Assembly: GCA_045106415.1 (NCBI GenBank)
Contig: JBGCEP010000040.1
Coordinates: 1 to 14,852, forward strand
Source: Oligoflexales bacterium
Lineage (GTDB): Bacteria > Bdellovibrionota_B > Oligoflexia > Oligoflexales > Bog-1112
Reading direction: 5' to 3'
Length of the DNA stretch: 14,852 bases
Position 1 is the first letter of the stretch; each line of letters starts with the position of its first letter. Position numbers and translations under genes: made by a program. The notes beneath the pieces are model-generated. The model did no database searches. It was given only the letters and a program-made list of their open reading frames with translations, and was not told the origin of the DNA. Positions 1 through 14,852 of this stretch are shown piece after piece.

Positions 1-13
1 TCTACTTAAATAA

Positions 14-41
14 TTAAGTTTTACTCTCCCAACACCGACAC
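14..41 (+). promoter_or_regulatory. Possible sigma-28 (FliA)-type promoter upstream of the lipoprotein operon
   Basis: TTAAGTTT (14-21), a 12-nt spacer and ACCGACAC (34-41), compared with the consensus TAAAGTTT-N11-GCCGATAA. It lies 40 nt upstream of ATG 81. Motif match by eye only. Confidence 0.3.
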
Positions 42-80
42 GGTGTTCGCAATACCTTGTAGATAGGTCGGAGAGAAAGT

Positions 81-809
81 ATGGATTTTAGAGCCGTTAT
101 TTTGAGTAGATGGATGGTCCCTTTTATTACCATCGGACTAGGAGGAGCTGCGTGTGCTCCTTCAGCTGAGGATCAAACATCAGGTGCAAGTCGAACTCCG
201 ATCGAGCAAAGAGACTCTACCTACGACTCATCGAAATCTGATGAAAGCCTAGAAGTTGGAGGATCTTCTACAGATCACGAAAGCGATGATATTTTAATAC
301 CACAACCAATATCAGGCTCATGGCTTTCTTGTGCGAGCCTCGGAGAAGGTGAAGCTCAGTGTGAAGTTGAAGATGAAGATATAGAGCGTATAAAAGATAT
401 TGAAGGCGATATTCAATGGGTTGCAATGTGGGACGATGGTCGTGAGCTATCAAAAGATGTTGCTGAACATATTGAGTTTAATGTCTCTGAAGATGGGCTT
501 ATGGTCTCTTTCTCATTTGGAGATTTGGATAAAGATATTCAAGAGAAAATTGTTATTGAATTGATGAAGGGCTCTGTTCTTGCTGGAAGAAGCCCAGCTT
601 TTTCTGAGCTTCCTAAAGTGGTTTTAGGTGATGATGAACCCAGCGTTTCATCATCATCTTCATATATTGAAGATGATGTTGTTTGTGAGAATGGATCAAA
701 CCCAGACTTAAGAGGCCGCTGGCTTGTGTGTTTGAGTGGGTGGGATTCTGGTCTATGTCCAGGAGGACAGAAAGCTCAGAGTAATCAGTACTGTCCTGTA
801 ACGAAGTGA
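81..809 (+). CDS. Hypothetical acidic lipoprotein with a C-terminal 4-Cys mini-domain
   Basis: 242-aa ORF with SD GGAG at 70-73. The N-terminal hydrophobic stretch ends in lipobox-like GAAC. It has Ser/Asp/Glu-rich linkers, a Cys pair (WLSC...AQC) and four Cys in the last 41 aa. No recognisable family. Confidence 0.8.
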   Translation: MDFRAVILSRWMVPFITIGLGGAACAPSAEDQTSGASRTPIEQRDSTYDSSKSDESLEVGGSSTDHESDDILIPQPISGSWLSCASLGEGEAQCEVEDEDIERIKDIEGDIQWVAMWDDGRELSKDVAEHIEFNVSEDGLMVSFSFGDLDKDIQEKIVIELMKGSVLAGRSPAFSELPKVVLGDDEPSVSSSSSYIEDDVVCENGSNPDLRGRWLVCLSGWDSGLCPGGQKAQSNQYCPVTK

Positions 810-822
810 TCGGAGTTCTTCT

Positions 823-1869
823 GTGAGAATAGTTTGGATCTATTTTTTATTTTTAAGTGCTTCGTGTGATAGCAACTCTGATCAACGATCTCGGGTTTCA
901 GCGTCAGATGTGAGTGAGCTTATTGATAAAGACGATGACGATAGCCAGTTTCAGGAGATTGTTGGCTCTAATAGTGCAAAAGACTTGAGTGATAGCGGTA
1001 AAAGGCTTGTAAGATCTATGGCCGTTTTAGGCGATTCTTTTACGATGGGTTTCTTTCTTGATACATCTATGGGGAAAGAACTCCCAAAAAAAGGCGCTAG
1101 TGAAAGGTTTGTTCGAGAAATTTGGCTTGAAGGTCAAAGAAATTTTGAAGCGTTAGCAGACGACTTGAGTGTTGATTTTTCGAAAATGAAAGGAAACCCA
1201 TATAGTGCAACGGGAAAATGCAATTCACATGCTTGCGAGTTAGGGTTGTCAAAGGCAAATATCACGGTAGAAGCTAAGGCAAGAGTGAGTGCTGATGATT
1301 TATCAAGACAAGCACAGGGTGTGCCTGAAGGGGTCGACTATGTTGTGCTTCAAGTTCCTGCTGCTGATTTTTGTGAAATGAGTGCTTCAAACTATGAAGA
1401 GCAGATGATCGAGAGCATTGAAGGTCTTGAAAATGCTTTTGAATCTTTATCTGGTTTTGATGTCAATCCGGTTGTGTTGGTTGTTCCTCCATATAATCTG
1501 GTTGATGTTTTTTCTAAAACAAAAGGTTCAGATCAAGCTATCTCTTCTCCGAGAAAAACTTTATGTTCAGAAGCTAGGGATGGAGATAGCGGTGGGAACG
1601 CAAATGTTGTTCAGTTATGTCCGTCGATGCTTGATGGTGATTTTAAGAAGGTTGCGAAAAAGGTGCAGAAATCTTGGTATCGCGCCATAGAAGAATCTGT
1701 CAAGAATTTTAAAATTCAGAGTCAATCAAATTTTTTATATGCAAAAGATGTTGAAAAAATAACATTCAAAACATCAGAACTTGCTCTTGATTGTTTGCAT
1801 CCGAATGCAGATGGTTTAGAGAAGATTGCGGAGAGCACATGGTCTACTGTCGCACCATACATACGTTAA
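823..1869 (+). CDS. SGNH/GDSL-family hydrolase lipoprotein (lipase/esterase/phospholipase B-like)
   Basis: GTG start with GGAG at 812-815 and lipobox LSASC. Block I is MAVLGDSFTMG (Ser codon 1036-1038) and block V is LDCLHPNADG (D-x-x-H). The protein has several Cys. Confidence 0.85.
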   Translation: MRIVWIYFLFLSASCDSNSDQRSRVSASDVSELIDKDDDDSQFQEIVGSNSAKDLSDSGKRLVRSMAVLGDSFTMGFFLDTSMGKELPKKGASERFVREIWLEGQRNFEALADDLSVDFSKMKGNPYSATGKCNSHACELGLSKANITVEAKARVSADDLSRQAQGVPEGVDYVVLQVPAADFCEMSASNYEEQMIESIEGLENAFESLSGFDVNPVVLVVPPYNLVDVFSKTKGSDQAISSPRKTLCSEARDGDSGGNANVVQLCPSMLDGDFKKVAKKVQKSWYRAIEESVKNFKIQSQSNFLYAKDVEKITFKTSELALDCLHPNADGLEKIAESTWSTVAPYIR

Positions 1870-4262
1870 TATTTGCGTCATTGCTCGTGATGAGTTGTGA
1901 CCATCAAATGACAAATCTGGGGAGGACCGCTCCATCTCGGGCTTCTGATGAAATATCCAAGAAACCAGTGATTGGCGCTGATCAAAATGTTGGGGTTTTA
2001 GAAGGTGTTTTGGATACGATTGTTACAAAAGCCCCTTCAAAAGAATCCACAGAGAAAAAATCTATTTTTCACTTTTCTTGTAACCATACAGCTCAATGTT
2101 TGTATGAAGTGAGACTTGACCAGCAAGAATGGCATCTCATTCTTTCATCTGTGTATGAAGTTGATGTTGAAGTCGGTGAACATCAGCTTGAAGTGAGAGC
2201 TGTTGACCATTTTGAAAATAAAGATCCAAGTCCGATCGTTGTTTTTTGGAACGTGAGGGAAGGCCTTCTCGTTGATGATTTTGTTTTTCTTGGAAAAGAA
2301 AAAAATGTAACAGGATCTTGGTCTGTTGCCACCAAGAGTGAGTGTGCTGTTCTAAAGCATGTGGAAGATCTTGATGACATAAAATTGGAAGGAGACTTGA
2401 AAAAAGGCGACTTGATTGCAGGTGCCATGGTGGTTGATGTTGGTGTTTTGACGAATTACTCCGAGAGTGTTTCTCTTTCGAGTGTTTATTATTCTGTTGC
2501 GTGTCGTCGCCTTGGAGGAGGGCTGTGGTCTTCTGTTAAAACAAGAAAAGTTCATCCTTTAAGGAAACCCGAGGTTGTCTCGCATCTTGGGGGTGGAGTC
2601 CGTAAACTTGTACAAAGCCCCCAATCAGCAGCTTTATATGGAGTTTCAGACGGTGGTATCATGATCTTCGCGCAAACAGAATCCACGATTCAAGCGACTC
2701 AAACTCTGACGATTCCTGGTTTAAAAGATATTGTTATTCGAGATAATGTTTTATTAGCGCTAAATCATGACGGTGTGATCTCTCAGTGGGATCTTTTGAA
2801 AAATCCTTTGCTTCCTGAGAAGATTAATGATTTCAAATTACCTTCGCCTGCGCAAACTTTAGGTTTTCAATCAAGTGAGAAAGTATGGGCTTTTTCTGAG
2901 AAGTTACAAAAATCATATGTTCTTAATTGGAGTGCAGAGGGTTTTTCTTTAGATAGAGAAGAAAGCCTAGAAAAAAAATCTACAAAGCTTATGTCGATTG
3001 GTGGTAAATTGTGGGCGTTAGGCGAAAACATCGTGTTTGATGACTCGACACCCGAGATTTCTATTCAGAATGCTGTTGATATGGCAGATGTAGGACAAAC
3101 TGGATGGGTTTTGACATCTGTGGATGGCACATGTTCTCTTTCTCTTCTGATCGATGGACTTGTACAACCACAAAATGTGGCAGGATTAGATTGTGATCAT
3201 ACTCAAGTTCATGCCCTCCAATCAGGGGTTGTTCTCATGGGAGGAGGTCTTCCTCAGAAAATTTCTGGAACTCCAGGGGCTCTTGTACTTGAAACTATAG
3301 GGGCTGAAGCTTGGACATCTGTAGTTGAAGTTGGAAATGGTTATCTCGGAGTGAAATCAGATTATCAATTGGAATGGGCTCGAGTGGGGGAAGCGATCCA
3401 AGAGGTGCCGTTAGTCACGGGTCTTTTCGGTGTACTGCAACATGGAGAAAATCTCTATAGTTGGGGTGGTCCAAGTCTTTTAGTCGCAAATATTATTGAT
3501 CAAAAGATTCGACCGCTGAACCTGACACGATTTGGGACATCTGTTTTGGATGTCGCTCATCACAAGACAAAACCTCTTATCGCTGTGGCTTTAGATCCTG
3601 GGGGAGTACAAGTTTTTGATGTTCAAAACCCTCAGCAGCCACTTTTATTATCGACATGGCATGCAGAAAAAAGATTTTGGAGAGTGGTGTGGAATGAAAA
3701 CGCTGTGATTGCAACAGGCCCTGAGGCTTTGGTGCACTGGAATTCACAAGGAGAAGTCTTATCAGAGAGACCTCTGCTTGGGGAAGATGAAGGAGAGCAT
3801 ATTGTCCTAACACCGGATTATCTTTTTCACCTTGGAACCAACCAGGAACTTCGCGTCTGGGGTCAGCCGTTTCAAGTGGATACAGACCCATACTGGCATA
3901 AAAATTATCGAGGAAGCCCGCGCTACGGTGTTTGGGTGAATGACTCGCTCTATATGGCAGATTTGTTTCAAGGGTTTTTGCGTTGGGAAATTCAAGAGGA
4001 TGATCTTATTATGGTGGAATCAAAGAAGGTGGTGGGGCTTCCTCGAAAGGTTCATGTTTTTGGTGATCGTTCTGCTTTTGTCGTGGAGCCCTATGGAGTG
4101 CATGTCTTCGAGCGGAGCACTTCTGGTGAAACATGGCTTCTTGACACATGGTCTTTGCCTGGAGGTGTTCCTTCACAGGTGGTTGCTGTGTCGCCTGAAT
4201 ATGCTGTTGTTTCTGATACAGAACTTGGTCTTCTTTTGGTGAAAGGGCTTATTGAAGATTAG
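1839..4262 (+). CDS. Large lipoprotein with an N-terminal Ig-like domain and beta-propeller (LVIVD-like) repeats
   Basis: Start moved from TTG 1791 to ATG 1839, which has GGAG at 1830-1833 and gives the signal peptide MVYCRTIHTLIFASLLVMS-C. Positions 2010-2255 match the bacterial Ig-like pattern DT.I...P......F.F......LD...W......GEH.LEVRAVD...N.DPSP....W.V. Later repeats such as GGVQVFDVQNPQQPLLLSTW, LYMADLFQGF and AVVSDTELGLLLV are LVIVD/propeller-like. Confidence 0.75.
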   Translation: MVYCRTIHTLIFASLLVMSCDHQMTNLGRTAPSRASDEISKKPVIGADQNVGVLEGVLDTIVTKAPSKESTEKKSIFHFSCNHTAQCLYEVRLDQQEWHLILSSVYEVDVEVGEHQLEVRAVDHFENKDPSPIVVFWNVREGLLVDDFVFLGKEKNVTGSWSVATKSECAVLKHVEDLDDIKLEGDLKKGDLIAGAMVVDVGVLTNYSESVSLSSVYYSVACRRLGGGLWSSVKTRKVHPLRKPEVVSHLGGGVRKLVQSPQSAALYGVSDGGIMIFAQTESTIQATQTLTIPGLKDIVIRDNVLLALNHDGVISQWDLLKNPLLPEKINDFKLPSPAQTLGFQSSEKVWAFSEKLQKSYVLNWSAEGFSLDREESLEKKSTKLMSIGGKLWALGENIVFDDSTPEISIQNAVDMADVGQTGWVLTSVDGTCSLSLLIDGLVQPQNVAGLDCDHTQVHALQSGVVLMGGGLPQKISGTPGALVLETIGAEAWTSVVEVGNGYLGVKSDYQLEWARVGEAIQEVPLVTGLFGVLQHGENLYSWGGPSLLVANIIDQKIRPLNLTRFGTSVLDVAHHKTKPLIAVALDPGGVQVFDVQNPQQPLLLSTWHAEKRFWRVVWNENAVIATGPEALVHWNSQGEVLSERPLLGEDEGEHIVLTPDYLFHLGTNQELRVWGQPFQVDTDPYWHKNYRGSPRYGVWVNDSLYMADLFQGFLRWEIQEDDLIMVESKKVVGLPRKVHVFGDRSAFVVEPYGVHVFERSTSGETWLLDTWSLPGGVPSQVVAVSPEYAVVSDTELGLLLVKGLIED

Positions 4263-4284
4263 CTCTTTATAAATAAAATCTTTG

Positions 4285-4321
4285 AAAAAAAGGTAGGCCT
4301 CAGAACAACTGAAACCTACCT
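4285..4321 (-). terminator. Rho-independent terminator of the AAA+ ATPase gene
   Basis: On the minus strand: AGGTAGGTTTCAG-ttgtt-CTGAGGCCTACCT-TTTTTT. This is a 13-bp stem (two G-U pairs that form only on the minus transcript) followed by a U-tract, starting 8 nt after the stop codon. Confidence 0.85.
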
Positions 4322-4329
4322 GGAAATTA

Positions 4330-5643
4330 TTACATGTAAAGGTGAGAGATATTTGATGGAAGCTCATCTTTTTTCTTAAATTTATCCACAATCATATTCA
4401 AAGCTTTTTCGAAGTGTCTAATTTCGACGTAGTCAGCACGTTCGAAGCCAGCAAAGAGTGCAGCTTGGTTGCACAGAGCTTTAAAGTCTGCGCTAGAGAG
4501 CCCAGCTGTGTCTTTCAGCATTTTGCTTTCAAAGTGATTTTCAAGAGCATCGAAGTCTTGGACTTTTAGGCGACGGGCATAAAAGCTAAATAGCTCTTGT
4601 CTTGTCGCATCTGTTGGAAGTGTGAAAGGAACTGTTTGAAAACGACCTGAGCGAAGCAGTGCGCTGTCAATGGATGAAATGTGGTTTGTCGCTGCAAATA
4701 AAAGAATTTTAGATGCGTGGAAGCCATCGACTTCAGCAAGGAGTTGATTGATGAGTTCACGTGTTGACATTTTGTTACCACTGTCCTCATCACGAGAGCC
4801 CACAGCATCGATTTCATCGATAAAGATCATAGCTCTTTTATGACGTGTGGCTCTTTGTCTAGCTTCTGCAAATACTTTTTTCACATTATCTTTTGAACCA
4901 CCAACCCATTTTGATTTTAAGCTAGGGCCTGTAATGTATGTTAATGGATAATCAAGTTCACTTGATAGAATTTTTGCTAAGTAAGTTTTTCCAACCCCAG
5001 GAGGTCCAGCAAACATAAATGCTTTTGGCATTTCTGCGCCAAGCTCTAGAAAACGTTCTTCATCTTGGTAGTAAGCAAGAAGATGTTGGATCATGACAGG
5101 TATTTCACCGATCCAATCGTTTTCAAGAGATAAGCCTTCGTGATTGTCGCCGCCCACGTACGACTTTTTTGGAGCCTTTGCCGGAGAAAGAATAATTTCG
5201 AAGCTTTCTGGAGGAGCAGTTCTTTTTCTTGGAGTTAAAGGGGGTGTTGCCTTTCCTTCTTCTTTTTCATCATCACTGCTTTCATCTGAGTCGACAGTGC
5301 GAATGTCGTCGTCAGTATCTGTGTTGATCGTAGGTGTGGTGGGTGTGTAGTCCTCGTCAGAGTCACTCTCGTTACTGTCCACGTCACTTTCAGAGTCGTT
5401 ATCGTCTTCAGTGTTGCCATCTTGAAAAGTAACATTGAGTGCTGCGGGTTCTAGTCCAGTGCGAATCACTTCTTTTAAGATTTTTAAAAGTTTCGCTTCA
5501 GCTTCTTCTCGAAGTTTTTGCTCTTCGATTTCTTGCTGAGAGTGTGAAGGGTTTTCACCCCTGCTCGCTTCAGAGGTTTGTGCAAAAGCAACTGGAACCA
5601 TAAAAAACGAAAAAAGGGACAAAGCCAGATCATGCCTTTTCAT
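4330..5643 (-). CDS. Classic-clade AAA+ ATPase (FtsH/Cdc48/PAN-like single module) with signal peptide, acidic linker and C-terminal HbYX motif
   Basis: Start moved to ATG 5643, which is preceded by AAAGGAG, giving 437 aa. It has Walker A GPPGVGKT (4984-5007), pore loop KWVG, Walker B IFIDEID, NQLLAEVDGF, SRH ATNHISSIDSALLRSGRF and lid GLSSADFKALCNQAA. There is no HExxH protease domain. The protein ends SHLYM followed by two stop codons. Confidence 0.92.
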   Translation of the reverse strand: MKRHDLALSLFSFFMVPVAFAQTSEASRGENPSHSQQEIEEQKLREEAEAKLLKILKEVIRTGLEPAALNVTFQDGNTEDDNDSESDVDSNESDSDEDYTPTTPTINTDTDDDIRTVDSDESSDDEKEEGKATPPLTPRKRTAPPESFEIILSPAKAPKKSYVGGDNHEGLSLENDWIGEIPVMIQHLLAYYQDEERFLELGAEMPKAFMFAGPPGVGKTYLAKILSSELDYPLTYITGPSLKSKWVGGSKDNVKKVFAEARQRATRHKRAMIFIDEIDAVGSRDEDSGNKMSTRELINQLLAEVDGFHASKILLFAATNHISSIDSALLRSGRFQTVPFTLPTDATRQELFSFYARRLKVQDFDALENHFESKMLKDTAGLSSADFKALCNQAALFAGFERADYVEIRHFEKALNMIVDKFKKKDELPSNISHLYM

Positions 5644-5750
5644 AAACGCTCCTTTAAAAGAAAAATGTCCAAAACTTTCTAAGAGACGATTCCACAGCGG
5701 CGTTTGAGATGCAAGCAAGTATTTCAAAATCTAAATAAAAAATTAAACTC

Positions 5751-5779
5751 TTGTGAATATTTTGTAAAACGTTTATTTT
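5751..5779 (+). promoter_or_regulatory. Possible sigma-70 promoter for the YqeY-like gene
   Basis: TTGTGA, a 17-nt spacer and TATTTT in the AT-rich divergent intergenic region, upstream of SD GAGGT (5793-5797). Confidence 0.3.
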
Positions 5780-5801
5780 CCATGTTTTAATTGAGGTTGT
5801 T

Positions 5802-6215
5802 ATGATTGAGAGAGTTAGCGAAGATATTAAAGAAGCCATGAAGCAAAAAAATCGATCCAAGCTTGAGGTTTTGAGAATGTTAAAATCTCGCTTACTTGAG
5901 AATCAAACTTCGTCAAAGCCTCAAGACCCTCAAAATGTTATCATTCAATATTCGAAACAGTTGCAAGGTTCTTTAGAATCTTACCCGCAAGATTCAGATG
6001 CATATCAAAAAATAGTGAATGAATTGAAAATGGTTGAAGAATATATGCCGCAAAAACTTAGTGAGGGCGAAGTTCGCTCTCTTATTGTGACGTTTTGTGA
6101 GCAAGCCGATAATTTTGGAGCTGTAATGAAAATGCTTGCTCCAGAAATTAAAGGTCGTTTTGACGGTAAGAAAGCTTCTGAAATTGTTAAGGAAGTTTTT
6201 GCTGAGAAGTCCTAA
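5802..6215 (+). CDS. yqeY: GatB/YqeY domain protein
   Basis: 137 aa with the typical pattern ERVSEDIKEAMKQK...LRMLKS, EL..VEEYMPQKLSE.EV and FGAVMK.L.PEIKGRFDGK. SD GAGG is present. Confidence 0.9.
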   Translation: MIERVSEDIKEAMKQKNRSKLEVLRMLKSRLLENQTSSKPQDPQNVIIQYSKQLQGSLESYPQDSDAYQKIVNELKMVEEYMPQKLSEGEVRSLIVTFCEQADNFGAVMKMLAPEIKGRFDGKKASEIVKEVFAEKS

Positions 6216-6255
6216 AAAGTGCTAGCGACCTTAGGTTTTGATCTTTAGTTGTGCT

Positions 6256-7986
6256 CTAGATTTCCAGGTATGGGTAAAAAAGTTTACCCATAGCGATAAC
6301 AAGGCATAGAAAAGTTAAAGCACGAATTCTGAACAGTGCTTCTGGAATCGTGACCAATGTTCTTGTGCTGATAAAAATAGCAAGACCTGAACTGCAAATA
6401 AGAGCTAAGTCAGGTGCGGCCATTACGCTAAGAGCGAGGGTTGTTAAAAAAATGAGAAAAACTAGTAAATCCGTTGGAGTGAGAGCTTTTAAGCATCTGG
6501 TAATAGAGCTGCTGACAGTAATACAAGTTGTGATGCTCATAAAAATTAAAGTTGCTTTATAAACAGAAAGCCACTTAAAAGATAAAGCCGAAATTGTCAC
6601 ATTTGTATCTGCAAAGCTCGATGCAAGTAAAGTCATCCCTGCAAGCGCGATCAAAAAACACGATAAAAAATCTGTTTTACGTTGCTCTCGTATCAAAGCA
6701 GCTCCAATAAGTAGGGTAACCATTGGGATGAGTGCAATCATTGAGGTGATTTGAGGATTTTGTGGCGCTGTAGCAGAAAGTATAAAAAGTGTATACAGGG
6801 CATAGAGAGTGAGTGACTCTGTAGTATATAGAAATTTTAAATAATTGCGTGAGGGTTCTTTCTCTACGAATTGGAAATTTTGTGCATACTTTCTTTTAAG
6901 AGGTGCAGAAGCCACCATTGCTATTGTGAATGAGAAAAGAACCCAAGGGACCCAATCCAGTCCACTGTTAGGGAAAAGAGCTGGTAGAACACCTCCTATG
7001 GCAAGAAGGACACTAATGAGGTAAATGACGGTGACGCTTTGTCTTGTGTTAAACCCAAGACCTAAAAGCGTGTGGTGAAAGTGTCTGTTGTCAGCATTAA
7101 AAGGGCTTTTCCCACTTCGAATTCTTAGGAAGATCACGGCTGCTGTATCGATAATAGGCACCCCAATACAGCATAGAGCTGATATCATTGAAATTTTTGT
7201 GTAGGGAGTGCCATCGGTTGGTATTCCACTCTGGGCAAAAAGCATAAGAAGAAGAACTCCGAGCATAAAGCCAAGCCAATTGCTTCCGCTATCGCCCATG
7301 AAAATTGAGGCAGGATAGGTATTATAGCTTAAAAATCCTAATATAGATCCTGTAAAAGGTAGAGCTAAGAGGAGTAATGAGTCAGAAGAACCTGAAACGA
7401 TCGAGTGCAAAAGGCTCAAAGAGATAAAGCCTATAAGGCTGATTCCCCCAGCCAAACCATCCATACCGTCGATCATATTAATAGAGTTGATTCCACCGAC
7501 AATAACCAAGATGGCAAGTGTTTGGCCAACGGGAGGTGGAATCGGAAGAATCAGATTTGGTGTGATGATGATCTCGTTTAAATTGAGTTGAAGTGTGTGC
7601 GAAACCGCCCAAGCCAAAAGGCACTGGAGAAGAAGGCGAAATCTGGCAGGAAGGGGGTGAATGTCGTCGGTGACTCCAAGGAGAAAGACGGCTAAGGAGC
7701 ACAGAAAAACTCCAGCGTAGGCTTGTGGAGAAAGCCATAAAAAAGTTGAAATAAAAAATGCGAATACAACTCCAATTCCACCATAGTGAGGAGTTGGAAG
7801 TGAGGACAGACCGTCCTGTCGCACAAGATTCCCATAGCGTTGATTGTGGATTGTTGTGTCGTTGTATAAGTGATAGGTGAGAGCAAATTTGCGGATGAGT
7901 GGAATTGTTAATGTCGAAATCAGTAGAGATGTTCCGAAGGGTATTAAATTGAACAACGCGCTTTGCTGGACAAGGGTGATCGACAT
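6256..7986 (-). CDS. wecA: Undecaprenyl-phosphate alpha-GlcNAc-1-phosphate transferase (WecA/TagO, MraY-like glycosyltransferase family 4) with a C-terminal membrane extension
   Basis: Motifs P..GGIG, LGVTDD, INSINMIDGMDGLAGG, YNTYPASIFMGDSGS and PFNADNRHFHH, with many transmembrane segments. Start placed at ATG 7986 (AAGGA upstream) rather than GTG 8028. Confidence 0.88.
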   Translation of the reverse strand: MSITLVQQSALFNLIPFGTSLLISTLTIPLIRKFALTYHLYNDTTIHNQRYGNLVRQDGLSSLPTPHYGGIGVVFAFFISTFLWLSPQAYAGVFLCSLAVFLLGVTDDIHPLPARFRLLLQCLLAWAVSHTLQLNLNEIIITPNLILPIPPPVGQTLAILVIVGGINSINMIDGMDGLAGGISLIGFISLSLLHSIVSGSSDSLLLLALPFTGSILGFLSYNTYPASIFMGDSGSNWLGFMLGVLLLMLFAQSGIPTDGTPYTKISMISALCCIGVPIIDTAAVIFLRIRSGKSPFNADNRHFHHTLLGLGFNTRQSVTVIYLISVLLAIGGVLPALFPNSGLDWVPWVLFSFTIAMVASAPLKRKYAQNFQFVEKEPSRNYLKFLYTTESLTLYALYTLFILSATAPQNPQITSMIALIPMVTLLIGAALIREQRKTDFLSCFLIALAGMTLLASSFADTNVTISALSFKWLSVYKATLIFMSITTCITVSSSITRCLKALTPTDLLVFLIFLTTLALSVMAAPDLALICSSGLAIFISTRTLVTIPEALFRIRALTFLCLVIAMGKLFYPYLEI

Positions 7987-8076
7987 CCCATTCCTTTCAT
8001 CGTGCGTAAATGAAATTCGAAGTGTCACGATGGTGTGGACGTCGAATTTTGAGTTGGTTGCTGTTGCTATCTCTCA

Positions 8077-8105
8077 ATTATGATGGAGTGATCAGAATAG
8101 AGCAA
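8077..8105 (-). promoter_or_regulatory. Sigma-70-type promoter for the wecA-like gene
   Basis: Minus strand TTGCTC (8105-8100), exactly 17 nt of spacer, then CATAAT (8082-8077), in the hrpB-wecA intergenic gap. Confidence 0.5.
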
Positions 8106-8119
8106 GAAGTGGGTTTTGC

Positions 8120-10660
8120 TCACAAGGGAGGAAGCTGAGATTTATGGCGGATAGGCAATGCTGTTTGAGGAATCTCAGCCCAGTGGTGACGTGGATAACG
8201 TCTCTGAAATTCAGATTTTAATTTTGGGTAGTGCTCTGCCCAAAAAAGCTGTAGATCCTCAGTAATCTGACATACTCTTTGATTAGGAGCTAGAATTTCG
8301 AGTGCAAGAGCGACTTTGTTGCCAATAATACGAGGAGCGGCATTGAGTCCATAGAAGTCCTGAATTCGGCCTCTGATAAATGTGCGCTGCTCGGTGTAGG
8401 ATATCTCAAAAGAAACCTTGTTTTTTGCTTTAATTTTATCGGGTGTTTCTAGGATAAGGAGTTGCCTTTCCTCCCAGGTGAGGCATTCTAGTATTTTTTC
8501 TTTTAAAAGAGAGGTTTGGAGTTGGCTCGGTGCTGCGGTGTCTTCAACGAGTAAAGAACATAGAATCTCCAACCATTCCCCTTTAAACTCAGGAAGGTCT
8601 TTTTGGAAATGCTCTCGGATGTAAGTTCGTTTGACATGATAACTGGCCAATATTTGATAATCATAAGCCGCTGGCCAATGTTCTAAAAGCCACTCGGTCA
8701 TAGCCTCTGAACTCCAATTGGAATTTTCAGTGTTACGTTTTTCAATAACACAGTTTCCGTAATAGAGATGAGTCGTCGATAGGACTTCCCCCGTTTTAGA
8801 GTCGATCTCCTCAGATGCTTTGGAGGTAAGCATTGCTGAAACATCTTTAAGTTGTTCAACACTGATAGAGCAAGCTAATGTGATGAGAGTTGATTTTGCT
8901 GCATCTTTTTTTTCTTCTTCAGTTGCGTGGATTGCAACAATAAATTCAGGGTGCTTTAGAGATGACCGAGCATGAAGAATGCCTCCGCGACCTAGGCAAA
9001 AATGATAACGGTATTGCTCGTTAGACTTTTGATTTTTTTGGCTATTTTTCTGTTTCTGCCTTTTTGCAACTCGATCCGGATATCCTGCTAAGATACTTTT
9101 TGCAATAGCTGAACGATTTGTAGGCTGGGTGGGCCAAGAAATTTTTTGCGGCATCTTATTACTAAATTGATTGAAAATCTTTTTGATTGAATCGATTTTT
9201 TTAGCATCAAGATGCCAATGGTCGTCACGATCTAAAATTTTTTTGATCGAATCCATTTGATAGGAGACGTCGCATTCAGTTTGCACCCGAGGAAGTTGCC
9301 TTGAAACTCCACCTTCTTGAATCACACAGGCTGCTAATAGAGCATCGCTTGCTTCAGGCGTACCTTCTTGTGAAGCAGCAATAGCTGCGATGCGTGGGTG
9401 AAAAGGATAGTGTGCACATTTTTTGCCAAAAGCTGTGAGTTTGTGATCAGGTGTAAGCATATCAAGACGGACGAGAAGTTGATAAGCATTTTCTAATCGT
9501 TTTGGGTGAGGGGGCTCGAGCCATGGTAGGGCTTGAGCAATGTGTGTTCTTTCATATTGATTAAGAGAGCCTAAACTATGGATGAGCAAAAGGCAGGATG
9601 TGAGGTCTTGTATTTGAATGTCTATAGGTGTGTGTGGGGGGCGGCGAAGAAACTCATCTTTAGTACACATTCGGTAAACGAGGCCAGTTTGAGTCCGTCC
9701 GGCTCTCCCCGCTCTTTGTTCCATGGAAGCTTGCGATGTTTTTTGTATCGCCAGTGTGGGCATTCCACTCCAGTGGGCATAACCTGATATTTTTGCAAGG
9801 CCAGGGTCAATGACACCTGTGATACCAGGTATGGTAAGTGAGGTTTCAGCAATGTTCGTTGCTAAGATTACTTTTCTAAGGGGGCCCTCTTGAAAAGCTT
9901 GATTTTGCTCGTTCTTTGGGAGATCTGCGTAGAGTTTACAGATGCTGATATTGAGATTTTTTTTTGAGAGAACTTGAGCAACATCATGAATAGATTGAGC
10001 ACCAGGTAGAAAAATTAGAATATGACCTGAACACTCAGGATCCTGCAGCATTTTTTGGCATAATTTAGCTATTTTTTCACAGTCGATCTGCAAAGATTGG
10101 TTGCAAACATAATGGGTATGAACAGGGAAAGTGCGACCCGGGATAGAAATAAGAGGAGCTTTTAAGCGTTCTGTTAACAGTTGTGAATCAAGAGTTGCAG
10201 ACATAATGATGATCTTTAGATTTTTATTCTTTGTTTGAGCTTTGCGTAAAAGCATAAGAGAGAGATCTGAACTCAAGCTTCTTTCGTGAAACTCATCTAA
10301 AAGAATACAACTGGTATCGTCGAAATGAGGATTTGATTGTAATTTTTTCAGTAAAACACCTTCTGTGACATAGACAAGGCGTGTGTTTGTAGATGTGTTT
10401 TGGTCAAATCGAACTTGATAACCAACAGTTTGCCCACAAGGTTCACCAAGTTCTTCTGCTGAGCGTGCTGCGCTTAATTTTGCCGCTAAACGACGAGGCT
10501 CAACGACAATGATCTTTTTTGAGAAAATTGGTAAAAGTGAAGAAGGCACTCTTGTTGTCTTACCTGTTCCAGGTGCAGCTTCGATGATGAGGCATTTTTC
10601 TTTTTTAATGAGTTGAGATATCGCTTGAAGATGTTCATCAATGGGGAGTTTTTTCTTCAA
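8120..10660 (-). CDS. hrpB: ATP-dependent DEAH-box RNA helicase HrpB
   Basis: 846 aa with AAPGTGKTT, EPRRLAA, DEFHER, MSAT, ATNIAETSLTI and QRAGRAGR, plus the HrpB C-terminal signature LAPNQR..QITEDL..FW...Y......RRYPRHHW. TTG start. Confidence 0.95.
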   Translation of the reverse strand: MKKKLPIDEHLQAISQLIKKEKCLIIEAAPGTGKTTRVPSSLLPIFSKKIIVVEPRRLAAKLSAARSAEELGEPCGQTVGYQVRFDQNTSTNTRLVYVTEGVLLKKLQSNPHFDDTSCILLDEFHERSLSSDLSLMLLRKAQTKNKNLKIIIMSATLDSQLLTERLKAPLISIPGRTFPVHTHYVCNQSLQIDCEKIAKLCQKMLQDPECSGHILIFLPGAQSIHDVAQVLSKKNLNISICKLYADLPKNEQNQAFQEGPLRKVILATNIAETSLTIPGITGVIDPGLAKISGYAHWSGMPTLAIQKTSQASMEQRAGRAGRTQTGLVYRMCTKDEFLRRPPHTPIDIQIQDLTSCLLLIHSLGSLNQYERTHIAQALPWLEPPHPKRLENAYQLLVRLDMLTPDHKLTAFGKKCAHYPFHPRIAAIAASQEGTPEASDALLAACVIQEGGVSRQLPRVQTECDVSYQMDSIKKILDRDDHWHLDAKKIDSIKKIFNQFSNKMPQKISWPTQPTNRSAIAKSILAGYPDRVAKRQKQKNSQKNQKSNEQYRYHFCLGRGGILHARSSLKHPEFIVAIHATEEEKKDAAKSTLITLACSISVEQLKDVSAMLTSKASEEIDSKTGEVLSTTHLYYGNCVIEKRNTENSNWSSEAMTEWLLEHWPAAYDYQILASYHVKRTYIREHFQKDLPEFKGEWLEILCSLLVEDTAAPSQLQTSLLKEKILECLTWEERQLLILETPDKIKAKNKVSFEISYTEQRTFIRGRIQDFYGLNAAPRIIGNKVALALEILAPNQRVCQITEDLQLFWAEHYPKLKSEFQRRYPRHHWAEIPQTALPIRHKSQLPPL

Positions 10661-10858
10661 GGTTATTTGCCTTTTATCTTGGTGTCATAAATGAAAAATT
10701 GGTTGAGCTCCAAGTCTATCGAGAATTCACTTGGTTGAGACTGCCGTAAAACAGCTCTTCTCATATTATAATAAAGGATGCAAGCAAGAGGTCATAACTG
10801 CTGTACGAGAGAGCCAGAGCTCGGTCGTTATATTCATTGTTATTTTTGAGTCTCACTT

Positions 10859-12127
10859 CTAATCATAGGCGATCATGAGTTGAATATTGCCTCCACCCCA
10901 AGGTTTAATAGGGTTGTTATGTCGATAATCATGGTTTAGCTGGTCCAAATCCCATGTGGTGTTGAGTCTGAGCTGCGCTCCTTTCGTAATAATAAAATCC
11001 CATGCAATACCAAGTTTGACTTCTGTTGTCTGAAAAGAAGCCTCTTCATCTCTTTGCTTATGACGAATAAGAGGTTTGTGTACCCACAGGTCACTTGAAA
11101 ACCAGTGGTGGTTTTGTATAAGCCATTCATAAGTAGTGAAAAAAGCACTTTCGATTCTAGTAACTTGAGGGCTTTCTGATTCTATATTGAAGTCGATAGC
11201 TTCGTTATCATTATCTAAGATGGGAAGAGCTATTTGTTGGTATTGATGGCTTTCTTTTCTTATATTGACACCGACTCTCCAATGATCTTTGTGCGCATGG
11301 GTGCAGGATTTTTCTATTTCAATAAATTGTTTATGTGAAGATAATTGTTTGGAAGCTAAATTGTCATAAAATTTACTTTCTAATTTTTTTGTATCTTTTA
11401 TAGTCATATTCCACAGTGATTTTTTATTGAAATTTGAAAGGTTTAAGGTTGATATCTTTTGTTCATATGCGTAGAGGTGACTTTCACTGAATTTTTGTAG
11501 TGTGAGAGGATGGTCCCAGCTATGATGTATGGCGATTTTGATATATTGAGGTTTGAGATATTCTATTTTGAAAATAGTTGATTTTGGCCTTTTGAGGTAG
11601 ATATCATGGGGGTTTTCTGAGTTCTTTGTATTGTAGAAATGATCTACAGACCAGAAATCGATACTTGCCGTGATTGTGTCTAAAAATTTTAAGCTGAATC
11701 CTGTGCCAATATCACCCCATTTTTTGAAAAACCCACCTTCACCAGCAATTCTCCAAGCGAGGTTAGGGAAAACTTTTTTTGACCAATGAAATTCATTTTG
11801 ATCGTCTTGCGTGATGTAATCTTCTTTTACTTGACGTTGGACAAAGAGGTGGGAGTCTTCGGGTAGATCTGAGATGATTTTCCACTGTTCATGATAAAGG
11901 AATTTTGTTTGGTTTAAGCTTCCTGCGCTGCTTCGGAAAATAAAATGTGAGCGTTCATAGCTACGGTTCCATCTGATAGGGTAACGGTAGCTATCTATAT
12001 CGTTGTAGTATTCAACCCCAGGTTTTTCTTGTTGGTCAACATGTGATTGATCACTATGATGAAAGCGAGCTGTAGCGAAATTTGATTTAGATAAGAAGAG
12101 CGCAATAAGAGCGTACTTTTGAAGCAT
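10859..12127 (-). CDS. Exported hypothetical protein, possible outer-membrane beta-barrel
   Basis: 422 aa with a strong SD (GGAGGA, 12136-12131) and an N-terminal signal-like segment ending ATA. It is aromatic-rich with amphipathic beta-like segments (GDIGTGFSLKF, EVKLGIAWDF, QLRLNTTWD) and ends GGGNIQLMIAYD. Confidence 0.7.
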   Translation of the reverse strand: MLQKYALIALFLSKSNFATARFHHSDQSHVDQQEKPGVEYYNDIDSYRYPIRWNRSYERSHFIFRSSAGSLNQTKFLYHEQWKIISDLPEDSHLFVQRQVKEDYITQDDQNEFHWSKKVFPNLAWRIAGEGGFFKKWGDIGTGFSLKFLDTITASIDFWSVDHFYNTKNSENPHDIYLKRPKSTIFKIEYLKPQYIKIAIHHSWDHPLTLQKFSESHLYAYEQKISTLNLSNFNKKSLWNMTIKDTKKLESKFYDNLASKQLSSHKQFIEIEKSCTHAHKDHWRVGVNIRKESHQYQQIALPILDNDNEAIDFNIESESPQVTRIESAFFTTYEWLIQNHHWFSSDLWVHKPLIRHKQRDEEASFQTTEVKLGIAWDFIITKGAQLRLNTTWDLDQLNHDYRHNNPIKPWGGGNIQLMIAYD

Positions 12128-12143
12128 AAATCCTCCTTATAGG

Positions 12144-12170
12144 TCTTCGGCATAAAAGTGAGCAACCTCA
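12144..12170 (-). promoter_or_regulatory. Possible sigma-28-type promoter for the 422-aa exported protein
   Basis: Minus strand TGAGGTTG, exactly 11 nt of spacer, then GCCGAAGA, ending 7 nt before the SD. The consensus is TAAAGTTT-N11-GCCGATAA. Confidence 0.3.
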
Positions 12171-12234
12171 ACTTTTCGGCCGCTTTTTCAGCGTAGTTGC
12201 TGACGTGGAAAAAAAGTCTCAATAGGGGGGCGCA

Positions 12235-12426
12235 ATGTAATCAGATCAACGAAAAAGAGGAGAATATGCCCCTCAACAATTTAAGAAGGTTGCATACCTC
12301 TTTGTTGGTAGAGGGCAGGTGATCACGGGAATAGCTGAAAAACTTGGCGTTGGGGTAGGTCTTTAGGGCTGTGGGTAAAAGCTGAAAAACAAGCACAAAC
12401 GAACCCAACCAAGCATAGTGAGACTA
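12235..12426 (+). pseudogene. Degenerate IS3-family OrfA (HTH_Tnp_1-like) remnant truncated at the IS4 boundary
   Basis: After a G-rich SD, manual translation gives M*SDQRKRGEYAPQQFKKVAYLFVGRGQVITGIAEKLGVGVG and, after a frameshift near 12361, LGLWVKAEKQAQTNPTKHSET. This matches the OrfA pattern RKR..Y..EFK..A......G......A..LGV....L..WVK. It is absent from the ORF track. Confidence 0.55.
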
Positions 12427-12445
12427 CATAGGTGACCGGGGTTTA
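12427..12445. repeat. IS4 terminal inverted repeat (downstream end)
   Basis: CATAGGTGACCGGGGTTTA compared with the reverse complement of 13799-13817, CATCTATGACCGGGATTCA. Confidence 0.7.
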
Positions 12446-12448
12446 TTT

Positions 12449-13760
12449 TCATGTGGTCACACCTAACTCTCCAAACACCTCTGAAAATGAATCTTTTCCA
12501 GCTTTAAAATTTGGATCAAAAACTCTTGAGATTGTCGATTTGATAACAGTTCTGAGCTCTTCGCGCCGAGTTGCTGTCTTGTAGTGCCTCAATCGAAGAA
12601 ATGACATGAATTGAGGAGAGGCTATTTTATAGGCTTTAACAGCCCTTTGTAGAGTCGTCTTCTTTGGCTTTTCCGAGATCTCATCTGCTTTTATCCTTAA
12701 AGCCACAGCTAAAGTGTCATTGATGATGGATACAAGAGCTAAAGACATCACGGTATTCGGGCTCAAAGAGGGCATATTCGAGAAGTTCAGTGTCGACTTC
12801 AGAACTTTGAAGGTCAATTCAATCTGCTAGCGCAGTGTGTAAAGCCTTTTGAGCTTTACAGCCTCTACTTTTAGGTTTGTGATGTATCAATGATATTGTT
12901 TATGCCGTTTGTTCCATATGCCAATGGCGCGGTATTGCGCACCGGATTTAGGGTCTTTAATCAAGATTTCAACGACACTGGATCGCAGGCTCAAGTTATT
13001 CTTCAGATCTCCCAAATTTTTGCCTACATGAGATTTGCTAATCCTGCCTTGCACAATCTCAGTGATCGTAAATTTGATGCCATTCTTGAGGCGAGTCATG
13101 AAAAATGCACCATGTTTGTCCATGCTGTGGAAGTGATCAGATGACCAATAACCCAAGTCAAAGAGGTAGAGAGCGCCAGCACGATGTTCTGGAAAATGTT
13201 GGTTATCGTGAGCTGACCCTTCTGTGAAATTGAGCCAAGACACACTTTCTGTTAAGAGGTCTATAGCCAGGTGTAGCTTGATTGCGGAGGGAACAAACGT
13301 TCCTGGCCAGTGATCAGCTACACCCATCCCATAAACTCACCAAGGAACCATCAATGCCAATGATCTTTGAAACTTCTAGCGTCTCAAGAAGGCCATCATA
13401 GGCCGAGAGATTTTTATTGACAGTAGAGTCCACAGCAATTTTCAAAGCCTCCCTAAGGTGCCTCACCAGGCTACCAGTGGCCATCCGCTCGTTGAAGGTA
13501 CTTTGTACGATCTCACATCCCGTAAACTGACAGACAGACTGCCGCAAATCCGCTAGTGAAGAGCTGTTGCCCGCTGTAGCCCTTGCCTGCAATAGCCCAC
13601 AGATAAAGTCGTAGTCTTGAATTTTTGCTCTTCGGTCATGTGAATTGAGGGGTGGTTGTAATTTTTGATTGAGTGCGGCGATAGTTTCTGCAATTATGAT
13701 CGTGCTTCTTGTGGTTTTTTGTAGTGAATTAATCTTAGGAAGCACCTTCATTATGTTCAA
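12449..13760 (-). pseudogene. IS4-family DDE transposase pseudogene (one frameshift, two nonsense codons)
   Basis: The three ORF pieces join into one protein of about 435 aa with IIGIDGS (D1), LYLFDLGY (D2) and YTLR*QIELTFKVLK (YREK motif, E). There is an extra G in the GGG run at 13323-13325, a TGA at 12887-12889 and a TAG at 12827-12829, both where Trp is expected. Confidence 0.9.
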
Positions 13761-13798
13761 TAATAATTATGTCTTACATTTGAAATATTCGCCTATCT

Positions 13799-13817
13799 TG
13801 AATCCCGGTCATAGATG
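13799..13817. repeat. IS4 terminal inverted repeat (upstream end)
   Basis: TGAATCCCGGTCATAGATG, the inverted partner of 12427-12445. Confidence 0.7.
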
Positions 13818-14062
13818 ATATGGCATTGACCATATTTATTTACTCAACATCTTCATAGCTGCACAAACAGCATCATAAATAGAGTCACATCCATCTCTTT
13901 ATTCTTCAGTTCTAATGAGTATAACTTAGGCATGTTAATTCCAAATATTTGATAAAACTAGGAACAACATACTAAATTTATAAGATAAAATAACATCTCT
14001 CGAATTCAAGTTTATAAGGGGCATAGACTCAGTCTGGGTGAGTAAATAAAACCAGTCAATGC

Positions 14063-14852
14063 TATATTCGACCAGTTTACAGCTATAAATACTGTGAGAG
14101 CATGAAAGTTGAAAATCTGCCTCCACACCCCGCGCCAAAAGCTGGGGTGACGACAGCAACACTCTCGCTTATTGCAAATATGAAATATATGGATGGTATG
14201 CCTTTATACCGAATTTCAAATTTTTTTGAGCGCAGAGGATTTGGAATTTCTAGAGATAAATTAGCTCAATGGATGGCTTTTGTTGGCAAAGCACTGAACC
14301 CTGTTATCATGCGAATTGATCAACTTCAACGCGATGGATCTATTCTTCAATTAGACGAAACGAGATTTTAAGTTTTAGCTGAAGAAGAACGAGCTGATGA
14401 AAAGCAAAGCTGGATGATTGTTGGCGTGTCAGAAACAATTGATAGGCAAAAAGTCGTAAGATTTCTGTATTCATGTTCCGTAGATCGTAAAACGATTGAA
14501 ACAATTTTAGATGGCTATCAAGGAGCCTTTGTCTCAGACGGCTTGGAGGTTTACAATAGCGTGGCAAGATCTTTATCGCTCGACCATGCAGGGCGTTGGG
14601 CACATGCTAGACGGAAGTTTTTTGAAGCATCCAAGTCGTCGGTAAAAGGTGGTTTGCGGAGCATGACCGCTCAAAATTTTCTCAAAAAAATCAATGAACT
14701 GTTTGCAATAGAAAGAGGCTGTAAAGAAAGACAACCTAAAGATATCTTGCAGGCAAGGGTGGAAAAAGCCTTCCTGTGCTTCAAGAGTGCCATGAACTGC
14801 TTCTGCACTATCATGACACGATTTCGAAGGAGTCGTTGACAGGAAAAGCACT
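14063..14852 (+). pseudogene. tnpC: IS66-family transposase (TnpC) pseudogene, 5'-truncated and running off the window
   Basis: Motifs YIRPVYSYKYCE, KYMDGMPLYR, LQLDETRF*VL, GAFVSDGLEVY, WAHARRKFFEA and LFAIER. There is an in-frame TAA at 14369-14371. A frameshift occurs in the A5 run at 14763-14767, after which the alternative frame continues SLPVLQECHELL...KESLTGKA. Confidence 0.92.

Follow-up and report, generated by a model that had tools for sequence, protein, structure and literature searches.

An AAA ATPase with a signal-peptide-like N-terminus, a candidate exported unfoldase, in an Oligoflexales bacterium

Introduction

The window analysed here (14,852 nucleotides; positions 1 to 14,852, forward strand, of contig JBGCEP010000040.1 in assembly GCA_045106415.1 from an Oligoflexales bacterium) encodes on its minus strand, at 4330..5643, a 437-residue AAA protein, P0001, in which a signal-peptide-like N-terminus is joined to an AAA module with intact ATPase motifs. 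We lean toward the reading that P0001 is exported and cleaved, and acts as an ATP-hydrolysing unfoldase in the periplasm or, by way of type II secretion, within a host or prey cell, using the ATP of that cell. An earlier note on this DNA had proposed that the enzyme works outside the cytoplasm that produces it, in host or prey, and the start codon, signal, ATPase motifs, TLC-type nucleotide transporters and type II secretion genes described below lend support to that proposal. According to the textbook rule, protein machines driven by ATP are not found past the inner membrane, because no ATP is present on its far side. If working AAA motors are indeed exported and run on host or prey ATP, the rule would gain a lifestyle-linked class of exceptions, and effectors a new kind, unfoldases rather than enzymes or binders.

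Start codon and signal peptide of P0001

The P0001 open reading frame (ORF) extends on the minus strand from ATG 5643 to TAA 4332-4330. A Shine-Dalgarno (SD) sequence, AAAGGAG (5655-5649, minus strand), lies five bases ahead of the ATG; no purine-rich or other ribosome-binding motif was seen upstream of the in-frame TTG 5727 and TTG 5718, and no SD was present at the downstream in-frame starts, of which there are nine up to codon 210 (codons 8, 15, 59, 88, 163, 184, 205 and 210 among them). The SD-backed ATG 5643 is the best start for P0001, and the ORF, translation and start are as the earlier note had given them.

Residues 1-21 (5581..5643, minus strand) have the form of a Sec/signal peptidase I-type signal peptide, with K2 and R3 in the n-region, an uncharged h-region of 16 residues (L6-A21) that includes Pro17, and A19-F20-A21 followed by Gln22 and an acidic mature end. 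The features expected for Sec and signal peptidase I were all found: a positive n-region, an uncharged h-region within 10-18 residues, small residues at -3 and -1, and no Pro at +1. Residues 6-24 are the sole hydrophobic stretch of the protein (the only 19-residue window with a Kyte-Doolittle value >1.2), and neither hydropathy nor the AlphaFold2 model gave a second transmembrane helix, in full agreement with the earlier claim that there is none.

Signals were called with our own rule set, calibrated on the ORFs of this genome, and not with a trained predictor. The strict rules, which P0001 passed with cleavage after residue 21, were passed by 65 of the 1975 real N-termini of the genome; among controls they were passed by 18 of 10268 internal-Met segments (0.18%), and by 1 of 6391 when the controls were limited to soluble proteins (without a hydrophobic helix). 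The basic n-region, h-region and A-F-A site described previously are therefore borne out by rules that are rarely passed in controls. Among the soluble Walker-A proteins of the genome, P0001 alone passed, and the one other Walker-A protein to do so was a multi-span transporter; with looser rules, 9/106 Walker-A proteins passed.

The charges flanking the P0001 h-region are +2/-1 before it and net negative after it. According to the positive-inside rule, the distribution of charge predicts which side of the membrane the flanks of a segment take; positive charge before and acidic residues after the h-region thus predict that the C-terminal part of P0001 lies outside. The short h-region with its Pro, together with the A-x-A, predicts cleavage, and the predicted mature protein (after Ala21) has 416 residues, 46.6 kDa and an isoelectric point (pI) of 4.8.

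The AAA module

Residues 172-426 (4366..5130; this and the following features of the protein on the minus strand) form a classical-clade AAA module with lid, as judged by Pfam, NCBIfam, AlphaFold2 and Foldseek. Walker A (residues 213-220; 4984..5007), the pore loop 1 sequence K-W-V-G (residues 245-248; 4900..4911), Walker B (residues 272-277; 4813..4830) and the second region of homology (sensor-1 T319/N320, R331 and R334; 4639..4689) were all intact and stand in columns invariant across 39 aligned AAA modules (for the pore loop, G248), and W246-V247-G248 supplies the aromatic-hydrophobic-Gly pattern of pore loop 1. The Walker motifs, pore loop and arginine finger were thus found as the earlier note had read them.

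Pfam AAA (PF00004) scored 114.9 bits (cut-off 21.2). AAA_lid_3 scored 18.9 bits, under its cut-off of 27.2, although lid helices are present in the AlphaFold2 model; this model was built with 38 AAA modules as alignment, and in it the AAA fold is confident at 172-426 and the last 11 residues (427-437) are disordered. Ranked by profile, the module was closest to FtsH_fam (162.8 bits, residues 186-428), with PAN (145) and one Cdc48 domain (130) next, each of the three falling far short of its family cut-off; a second PAN subfamily model of NCBIfam gave 137.5, CdvC 101 and IteA 90.7 bits. Single-domain matches to the PDB were AFG3L2 (132 bits), paraplegin (128) and i-AAA (126), and the top Foldseek matches were i-AAA 5ubv, Ycf2-FtsHi 8xku and AFG3L2 6nyy, with PAN 3h4m at rank 7. 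Peptidase M41 (PF01434) was absent from P0001 in the Pfam search, the protein ending 11 residues past the lid, and an OB domain (Prot_ATP_ID_OB) was found neither by the Pfam search nor in the AlphaFold2 model; both absences had been claimed beforehand.

Ahead of the module, AlphaFold2 drew residues 33-62 (5458..5547) as a single long charged helix, a possible coiled coil (predicted local distance difference test (pLDDT) 55-69), and residues 63-171 (5131..5457; pLDDT < 50) as an acidic, disordered linker rich in Ser, Thr, Asp and Glu. The 109 linker residues include 30 D+E, 9 K+R and 23 S+T (pI 4.05), and Pro, Lys and Arg cluster in a patch near residues 136-160. A nuclear-localisation-like reading of this basic patch (~138-160) was dropped, as it departs from the monopartite consensus in its strict form and has a bipartite spacer of 14 residues.

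Nucleotide transporters and type II secretion genes

A profile search detected three full-length TLC/NTT nucleotide-transporter genes in the genome that holds P0001 (G000; C83:9695-11140, C10:71538-73013 and C10:35617-37059), with scores of 638, 493 and 480 bits. TLC genes were present in 15/15 sister genomes of the family (16/16 with its own), and in 0/25 genomes of 15 other Oligoflexales families and 0/14 control genomes, so that the check on lifestyle proposed in the earlier note came out favourably. An excerpt of PMC1951785 gives ATP/ADP transport proteins as a common feature of intracellular bacteria. The family would take its nucleotides from a host or prey cell. Independently of P0001, the data point to these Oligoflexales as energy parasites, apparently an undescribed clade of nucleotide importers; a full-text search found no paper on nucleotide transporters in Bdellovibrionota or Oligoflexia, and PMC10701089 held nothing on the lifestyle of Oligoflexales genomes. 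Genome sizes across the family range from 1.8 to 6.3 Mb, and the organism is not a highly reduced endosymbiont.

Import through TLC transporters would mean that ATP must traverse the outer membrane and periplasm to reach them. The premise of a periplasm without usable ATP, from which the earlier note had argued, would then probably fail in this ATP-importing organism, and ATP probably reaches the space outside its inner membrane.

A type II secretion-like cluster was found in the same genome at C21:3000-16300 (L221), with GspD (N0 + secretin), GspE, GspF, T2SSJ, T2SSK, a PilM-like protein and a small PDZ protein; it holds two adjacent secretins (739 and 490 aa) and three pseudopilin-like genes. 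VirB4 (PF03135) was not found in the genome (93.8% complete). A separate pilMNOPQ-like cluster with a secretin was seen on C26, as judged from the ORF list only. The sequencing runs in which this DNA was found were DNA runs from one study, which may be the source sample, with no RNA runs among them, and nothing was drawn from them on expression or habitat.

Other AAA proteins with signal-like N-termini

The housekeeping AAA+ proteins of the genome (Lon, ClpX, ClpA/B-type, RuvB and DnaX-type) do not have signal-like N-termini; only FtsH does, via its first transmembrane helix (TM1). Among extra AAA proteins, gathered by similarity to signal-bearing queries, 14/14 of those examined in the family begin with a signal-like segment, versus 0/7 in other families; 12 of the 14 are without a later hydrophobic 19-mer, and the other two have an FtsH-like second helix. 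Two non-family loci (G021:C387 and G039:C289) had no scorable ORF and were excluded from this comparison. The signal-bearing AAA proteins of the family belong to several unrelated AAA lineages, which points to more than one gain or retention of the signal.

Tandem AAA genes with signal-like N-termini lie in the same genome at C10:104404-107399 (locus L178, 4405-7400); these encode P0272 (502 aa) and P0273 (439 aa, Walker A degenerate), with homologues at E <= 1e-8 in 3/15 sister genomes and 0/25 others. A meiotic-clade-like Arg-Arg-Phe motif is present in P0272, as is a Lys/Glu-rich helix at its C-terminus, and the pair adjoins a chemotaxis cluster (a CheB/CheR fusion and a methyl-accepting chemotaxis protein).

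An ankyrin/AAA subfamily (P0274-P0276) comprises G008:C466 (L208, 77-2122, minus strand), G008:C316 (L209), G010:C17 (L231, 991-2412) and G013:C28 (L232, 1024-2430), each with a signal and an AAA module. The two G008 proteins have ankyrin repeats between the two (Ank_2 59 and 49 bits), and GGAGG stands immediately ahead of the signal-opening ATG in the G010 and G013 genes. At E <= 1e-15 only four matches to the subfamily turned up among 5.8 bn clusters, three being full-length members; its C-terminus is conserved as Glu-Trp-x-x-x-Tyr-x, and its identity to P0001 is 17-22%.

The C-terminal tail

Residues 427-437 of P0001 (4333..4365, minus strand; AlphaFold2 pLDDT < 50) form a disordered tail ending in Leu-Tyr-Met (4333-4341), of the hydrophobic-Tyr-X (HbYX) type. 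Hydrophobic-Tyr-X endings occur in 18/2337 ORFs of the genome (0.77%), a figure that is not a test, since the motif was spotted post hoc. The motif gains weight because it is conserved in a second signal-bearing AAA lineage: the full-length ankyrin/AAA endings are Leu-Tyr-Met, Met-Tyr-Asn, Ala-Tyr-Ile and Met-Phe-His, and three metagenome members of the subfamily, all with signal-like starts, end in Lys-Tyr-Ile, Ala-Tyr-Asn and Thr-Tyr-Leu. The penultimate residue is therefore Tyr in 6/7 and Phe in 1/7 tails, and position -3 is taken by a hydrophobic residue in 5/7. The count excludes G008:C316a of the subfamily and G012:C452, a classical AAA protein with a signal that stands outside it, both of which are cut short inside the lid. 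None of the extra AAA proteins of other families (0/7) had an HbYX-type ending.

As described in excerpts of PMC8907193 and PMC11142061, proteasome activators use a hydrophobic-Tyr-X tail to dock on the 20S particle; the human 20S preference 'Y-F/Y' given in the former is unmatched by the P0001 tail, which has the canonical HbYX only. The 20S alpha/beta subunits or HslV (PF00227) were found in 0/41 genomes of the order, its own included, with a control search positive in 10/14 well-known genomes, so these genes would offer the tail no internal partner. Complex prediction of residues 396-437 with two copies of an archaeal 20S alpha stand-in gave 0.36 versus 0.27 for the control, which is evidence neither way. 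A full-text literature search found no description of a bacterial HbYX effector. Alternatively, the tail may be a class II PDZ ligand (hydrophobic-x-hydrophobic), possibly read by the PDZ protein of the type II secretion cluster; this pattern fits the P0001 tail but only some of the ankyrin/AAA endings.

Relatives and codon usage

An orthologue of P0001 was not found among 5.8 bn clusters, 1.84 bn representatives, 185,579 species genomes, metagenome contigs, 40 relatives and 16 family genomes. The best matches span only residues ~180-430, at 32-40% identity, and are mostly FtsH or multi-domain Cdc48-type proteins; the module is 35% identical to the FtsH of its own genome, and 32-39% to any FtsH. 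Nothing else in the genome matched the N-terminal 169 residues. Loci L012 and L098 were tried as orthologues and rejected, being FtsH-type proteins that carry an HEXXH protease. The L098 metagenome contig encodes, at 263-1987 (+), an FtsH-like protein of 574 aa that carries the protease motif and has a single N-terminal region; the contig is very AT-rich with Asn-rich neighbours, and its origin may be a giant virus or a eukaryotic organelle.

Codon usage of the P0001 gene is native (62nd percentile of 1108 genes), and its GC content at third codon positions (GC3) is 0.336, compared to 0.318 +/- 0.047 for the genome; since both are typical of the genome, the gene is not a recent import. No synteny around YqeY was found with the nearest relatives, where the flanks differ, and an insertion site could not be defined.

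Likeness to known AAA systems

The best sequence and structure matches of P0001 are FtsH, i-AAA YME1, m-AAA AFG3L2 and paraplegin, and the FtsHi proteins of the Ycf2 motor, with which it has in common the ATPase motifs and an aromatic pore loop. FtsH, however, has two N-terminal transmembrane helices around a periplasmic domain, whereas P0001 has one hydrophobic segment; FtsH ends in an M41 zinc-peptidase that P0001 is without (FtsH_fam 162.8 bits versus a cut-off of 600), and the predicted topology of P0001 is the opposite of that of FtsH. With PAN, Rpt and Mpa it has in common a classical AAA module, an N-terminal helix and a flexible hydrophobic-Tyr-X tail, and the PAN models aligned to the end of the profile. 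The resemblance to PAN suggested in the earlier note is strengthened by this C-terminal motif, while the lack of an OB fold, which that note had also remarked on, still sets the two apart: PAN has an N-terminal coiled coil and an OB domain, whereas P0001 has ~110 disordered residues between its helix and the AAA module. Also unlike PAN, P0001 has a signal peptide, and 20S or HslV was not found in its own genome or in 40 relatives. On sequence and model, P0001 is neither FtsH nor PAN, and parts of it would work like both.

A parallel is offered by phytoplasmas, in which, as an excerpt of PMC6981957 describes, FtsH/AAA+ ATPases are predicted to face outward to the host and some are without a protease domain; these too are FtsH-type motors of a host-dependent intracellular bacterium with the catalytic part predicted outside. 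Phytoplasmas differ in being wall-less Mollicutes, for which the outside is the host cytoplasm, and according to the same excerpt different programs disagree on the predicted topology and the proteins remain anchored in the membrane. The bearer of P0001 is presumably a diderm with type II secretion genes, and its signal looks cleavable.

In the N-anchored extractases Msp1 and ATAD1, as in P0001, one hydrophobic segment at the N-terminus precedes a lone AAA module. For P0001, the A-x-A and the charges on either side of the segment predict the opposite orientation and cleavage, and its module is of FtsH/PAN type (the meiotic-clade CdvC scored 101 bits versus 162.8 for FtsH). Torsins, in the lumen of the endoplasmic reticulum, and HSP101 of the Plasmodium PTEX are signal-bearing AAA+ proteins in non-cytosolic, ATP-containing compartments; these eukaryotic proteins fall in other AAA+ clades, and the ancestry that they share with P0001 goes no further than the superfamily. 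Like P0001, IetA from the anti-phage system IetAS is a stand-alone AAA protein, but its PADLOC score of 107.7 bits is below those of FtsH and PAN, IetA is paired with the serine protease IetS and no protease gene was found in the window, and the IetA profiles, to which the P0001 match begins at position 100, show no signal peptide. A full-text literature search for secreted AAA effectors with signal peptides returned nothing relevant.

Explanations for P0001

Under the reading toward which we lean, the Sec pathway would export the P0001 pre-protein and signal peptidase I would cut it after Ala21. The mature protein would most likely be a hexameric protein unfoldase or remodeller, at work in the periplasm or, following type II secretion, in a host or prey cell, and the ATP for it would come from the external nucleotides that are imported through the three TLC-type transporters. 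We infer each of these steps, from export, cleavage and hexamer formation to unfolding, ATP supply and site of action. A specific case of this reading, which we consider quite unlikely, is that P0001 is a secreted PAN mimic that docks on the 20S proteasome of the host. After Sec and type II export to the host cell it would assemble into a ring, its Leu-Tyr-Met tails would enter the alpha-ring pockets of the host 20S, and host proteins would be fed to the 20S independently of ubiquitin, which might serve, for instance, to set amino acids free or to clear defence factors. An HbYX-type tail in a lineage without a proteasome makes such a hijack of the host 20S a testable prediction. In a weaker version of this idea, P0001 would be an unfoldase of the periplasm, driven by host ATP on its way to the TLC transporters.

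Several points weigh against export of a working motor. The P0001 gene is a singleton, so that conservation of the signal and purifying selection are not assessable, and the case for P0001 is that of a single genome and purely computational. We know of no established exported ATP-hydrolysing AAA protein in Gram-negative bacteria, and the presence of ATP in the periplasm of this bacterium is itself something that we infer. Two of the 14 family AAA proteins (G012:C351 and G012:C66) carry a second membrane segment, the first being TM1 of an FtsH-like hairpin with the AAA module in the cytoplasm, so a hydrophobic N-terminus on an AAA protein of this family does not always mean export; moreover, the 14 include paralogues and do not count as 14 independent events. 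TLC is the main ground for host dependence: a search of the P0001 genome (93.8% complete) gave no PurC, but this gene was found in 10/15 sisters, versus 22/25 others, which means that the family is not uniformly reduced, and flagella and chemotaxis genes are retained. GspL (PF05134) was not found in the same genome, and the type II secretion call rests on the other components.

An uncleaved anchor of Msp1/ATAD1 type, which the earlier note had kept as an option, would place the N-terminus out and the C-terminus in, with the AAA module facing the cytoplasm and extracting or remodelling inner-membrane proteins with cytoplasmic ATP. AAA motors do normally work in the cytoplasm, the nearest relatives of the module are membrane-bound FtsH-type motors, and G012:C351 and G012:C66 pair a hydrophobic N-terminus and second segment with an AAA module inside. 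We nevertheless hold this to be unlikely for P0001, where the charges are reversed (K2/R3 before the segment, net acidic after it), the uncharged run is only 16 residues with Pro17 and ends in A-F-A, a classic signal peptidase I site, and no second hydrophobic segment would return the chain inward; flanking charge and h-region length both disfavour the anchor. A start further downstream, for example at Met184, Met205 or Met210, would instead make P0001 a soluble, cytoplasmic, stand-alone AAA protein of the kind known from phages and defence systems. Stand-alone FtsH-like AAA proteins do occur there (phrog_3757 matched with 136.9 bits and IetA with 107.7 bits), and the ESM Atlas feature matches include virus-rich clusters of 294-383 aa. 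This we regard as very improbable: the codons in question have no SD, the frame is open for 212 codons upstream of Met184, which is very unlikely for non-coding DNA with ~6% stops expected per codon (our own estimate), a start at Met205 or Met210 would cut the AAA fold, which begins near residue 172, and no IetS-type protease gene lies nearby in the window.

It is also conceivable, though we think it rather improbable, that P0001 is exported with its motor idle outside, or that it is a lineage-specific chimera of recent origin, hardly functional if at all, made from a duplicated FtsH-type AAA module and a new signal-linker piece near insertion sequences (IS). Consistent with such an origin, P0001 is an orphan in all of the collections searched, its N-terminal 170 residues have no relative even in its own genome, its GC is 0.44 in the N-terminal part versus 0.40 in the AAA part, the surroundings of YqeY show no synteny with the nearest relatives, and the contig end holds IS4 and IS66 transposase fragments. 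However, the catalytic residues are all intact despite only 32-39% identity to any FtsH, which points to maintenance over a long period; the gene shows native codon usage and comes with an SD and a terminator of its own, and its C-terminal motif is common to another signal-bearing AAA subfamily.

Flanking sequences and neighbouring genes

The P0001 gene is flanked by a divergent YqeY gene (5802-6215, +) and a convergent 823-aa ORF (1791-4262, +), and it is monocistronic because of this arrangement. An intrinsic terminator, with a 13-pair stem, 5-nt loop and T-run (4291..4321, minus strand), lies 3' of the stop codon, so that the previous description of a monocistronic gene with a strong SD and its own terminator stands. 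A weak sigma-70-like promoter (TTCACA, 18 nt, TAGATT; 5728..5757, minus strand) has a 9/12 consensus match and carries low weight, promoter-like sites numbering 5 in the region compared to 2.8 +/- 1.6 in shuffles. Since its -10 box ends at 5728, RNA would start, if the site is used, at or after TTG 5727.

The 823-aa protein has a signal- or lipoprotein-like start and no Pfam, NCBIfam, PHROG or PADLOC match. Starts of this kind were also seen for a GDSL-type lipase (823-1869, +) and for a 242-aa protein (81-809, +) for which no match was found. At 6256-8028 (minus strand) lies a gene for a WecA/MraY-family glycosyl-phosphate transferase of 590 aa, with ~230 residues beyond the WecA profile and 13 hydrophobic segments. 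The IS4-family and IS66-family transposase fragments at the contig end (12887-13760, minus strand, and 14414-14839, plus strand) have a GC3 of 0.41-0.47, compared to about 0.32 elsewhere, and probably explain the break in the assembly at that point.

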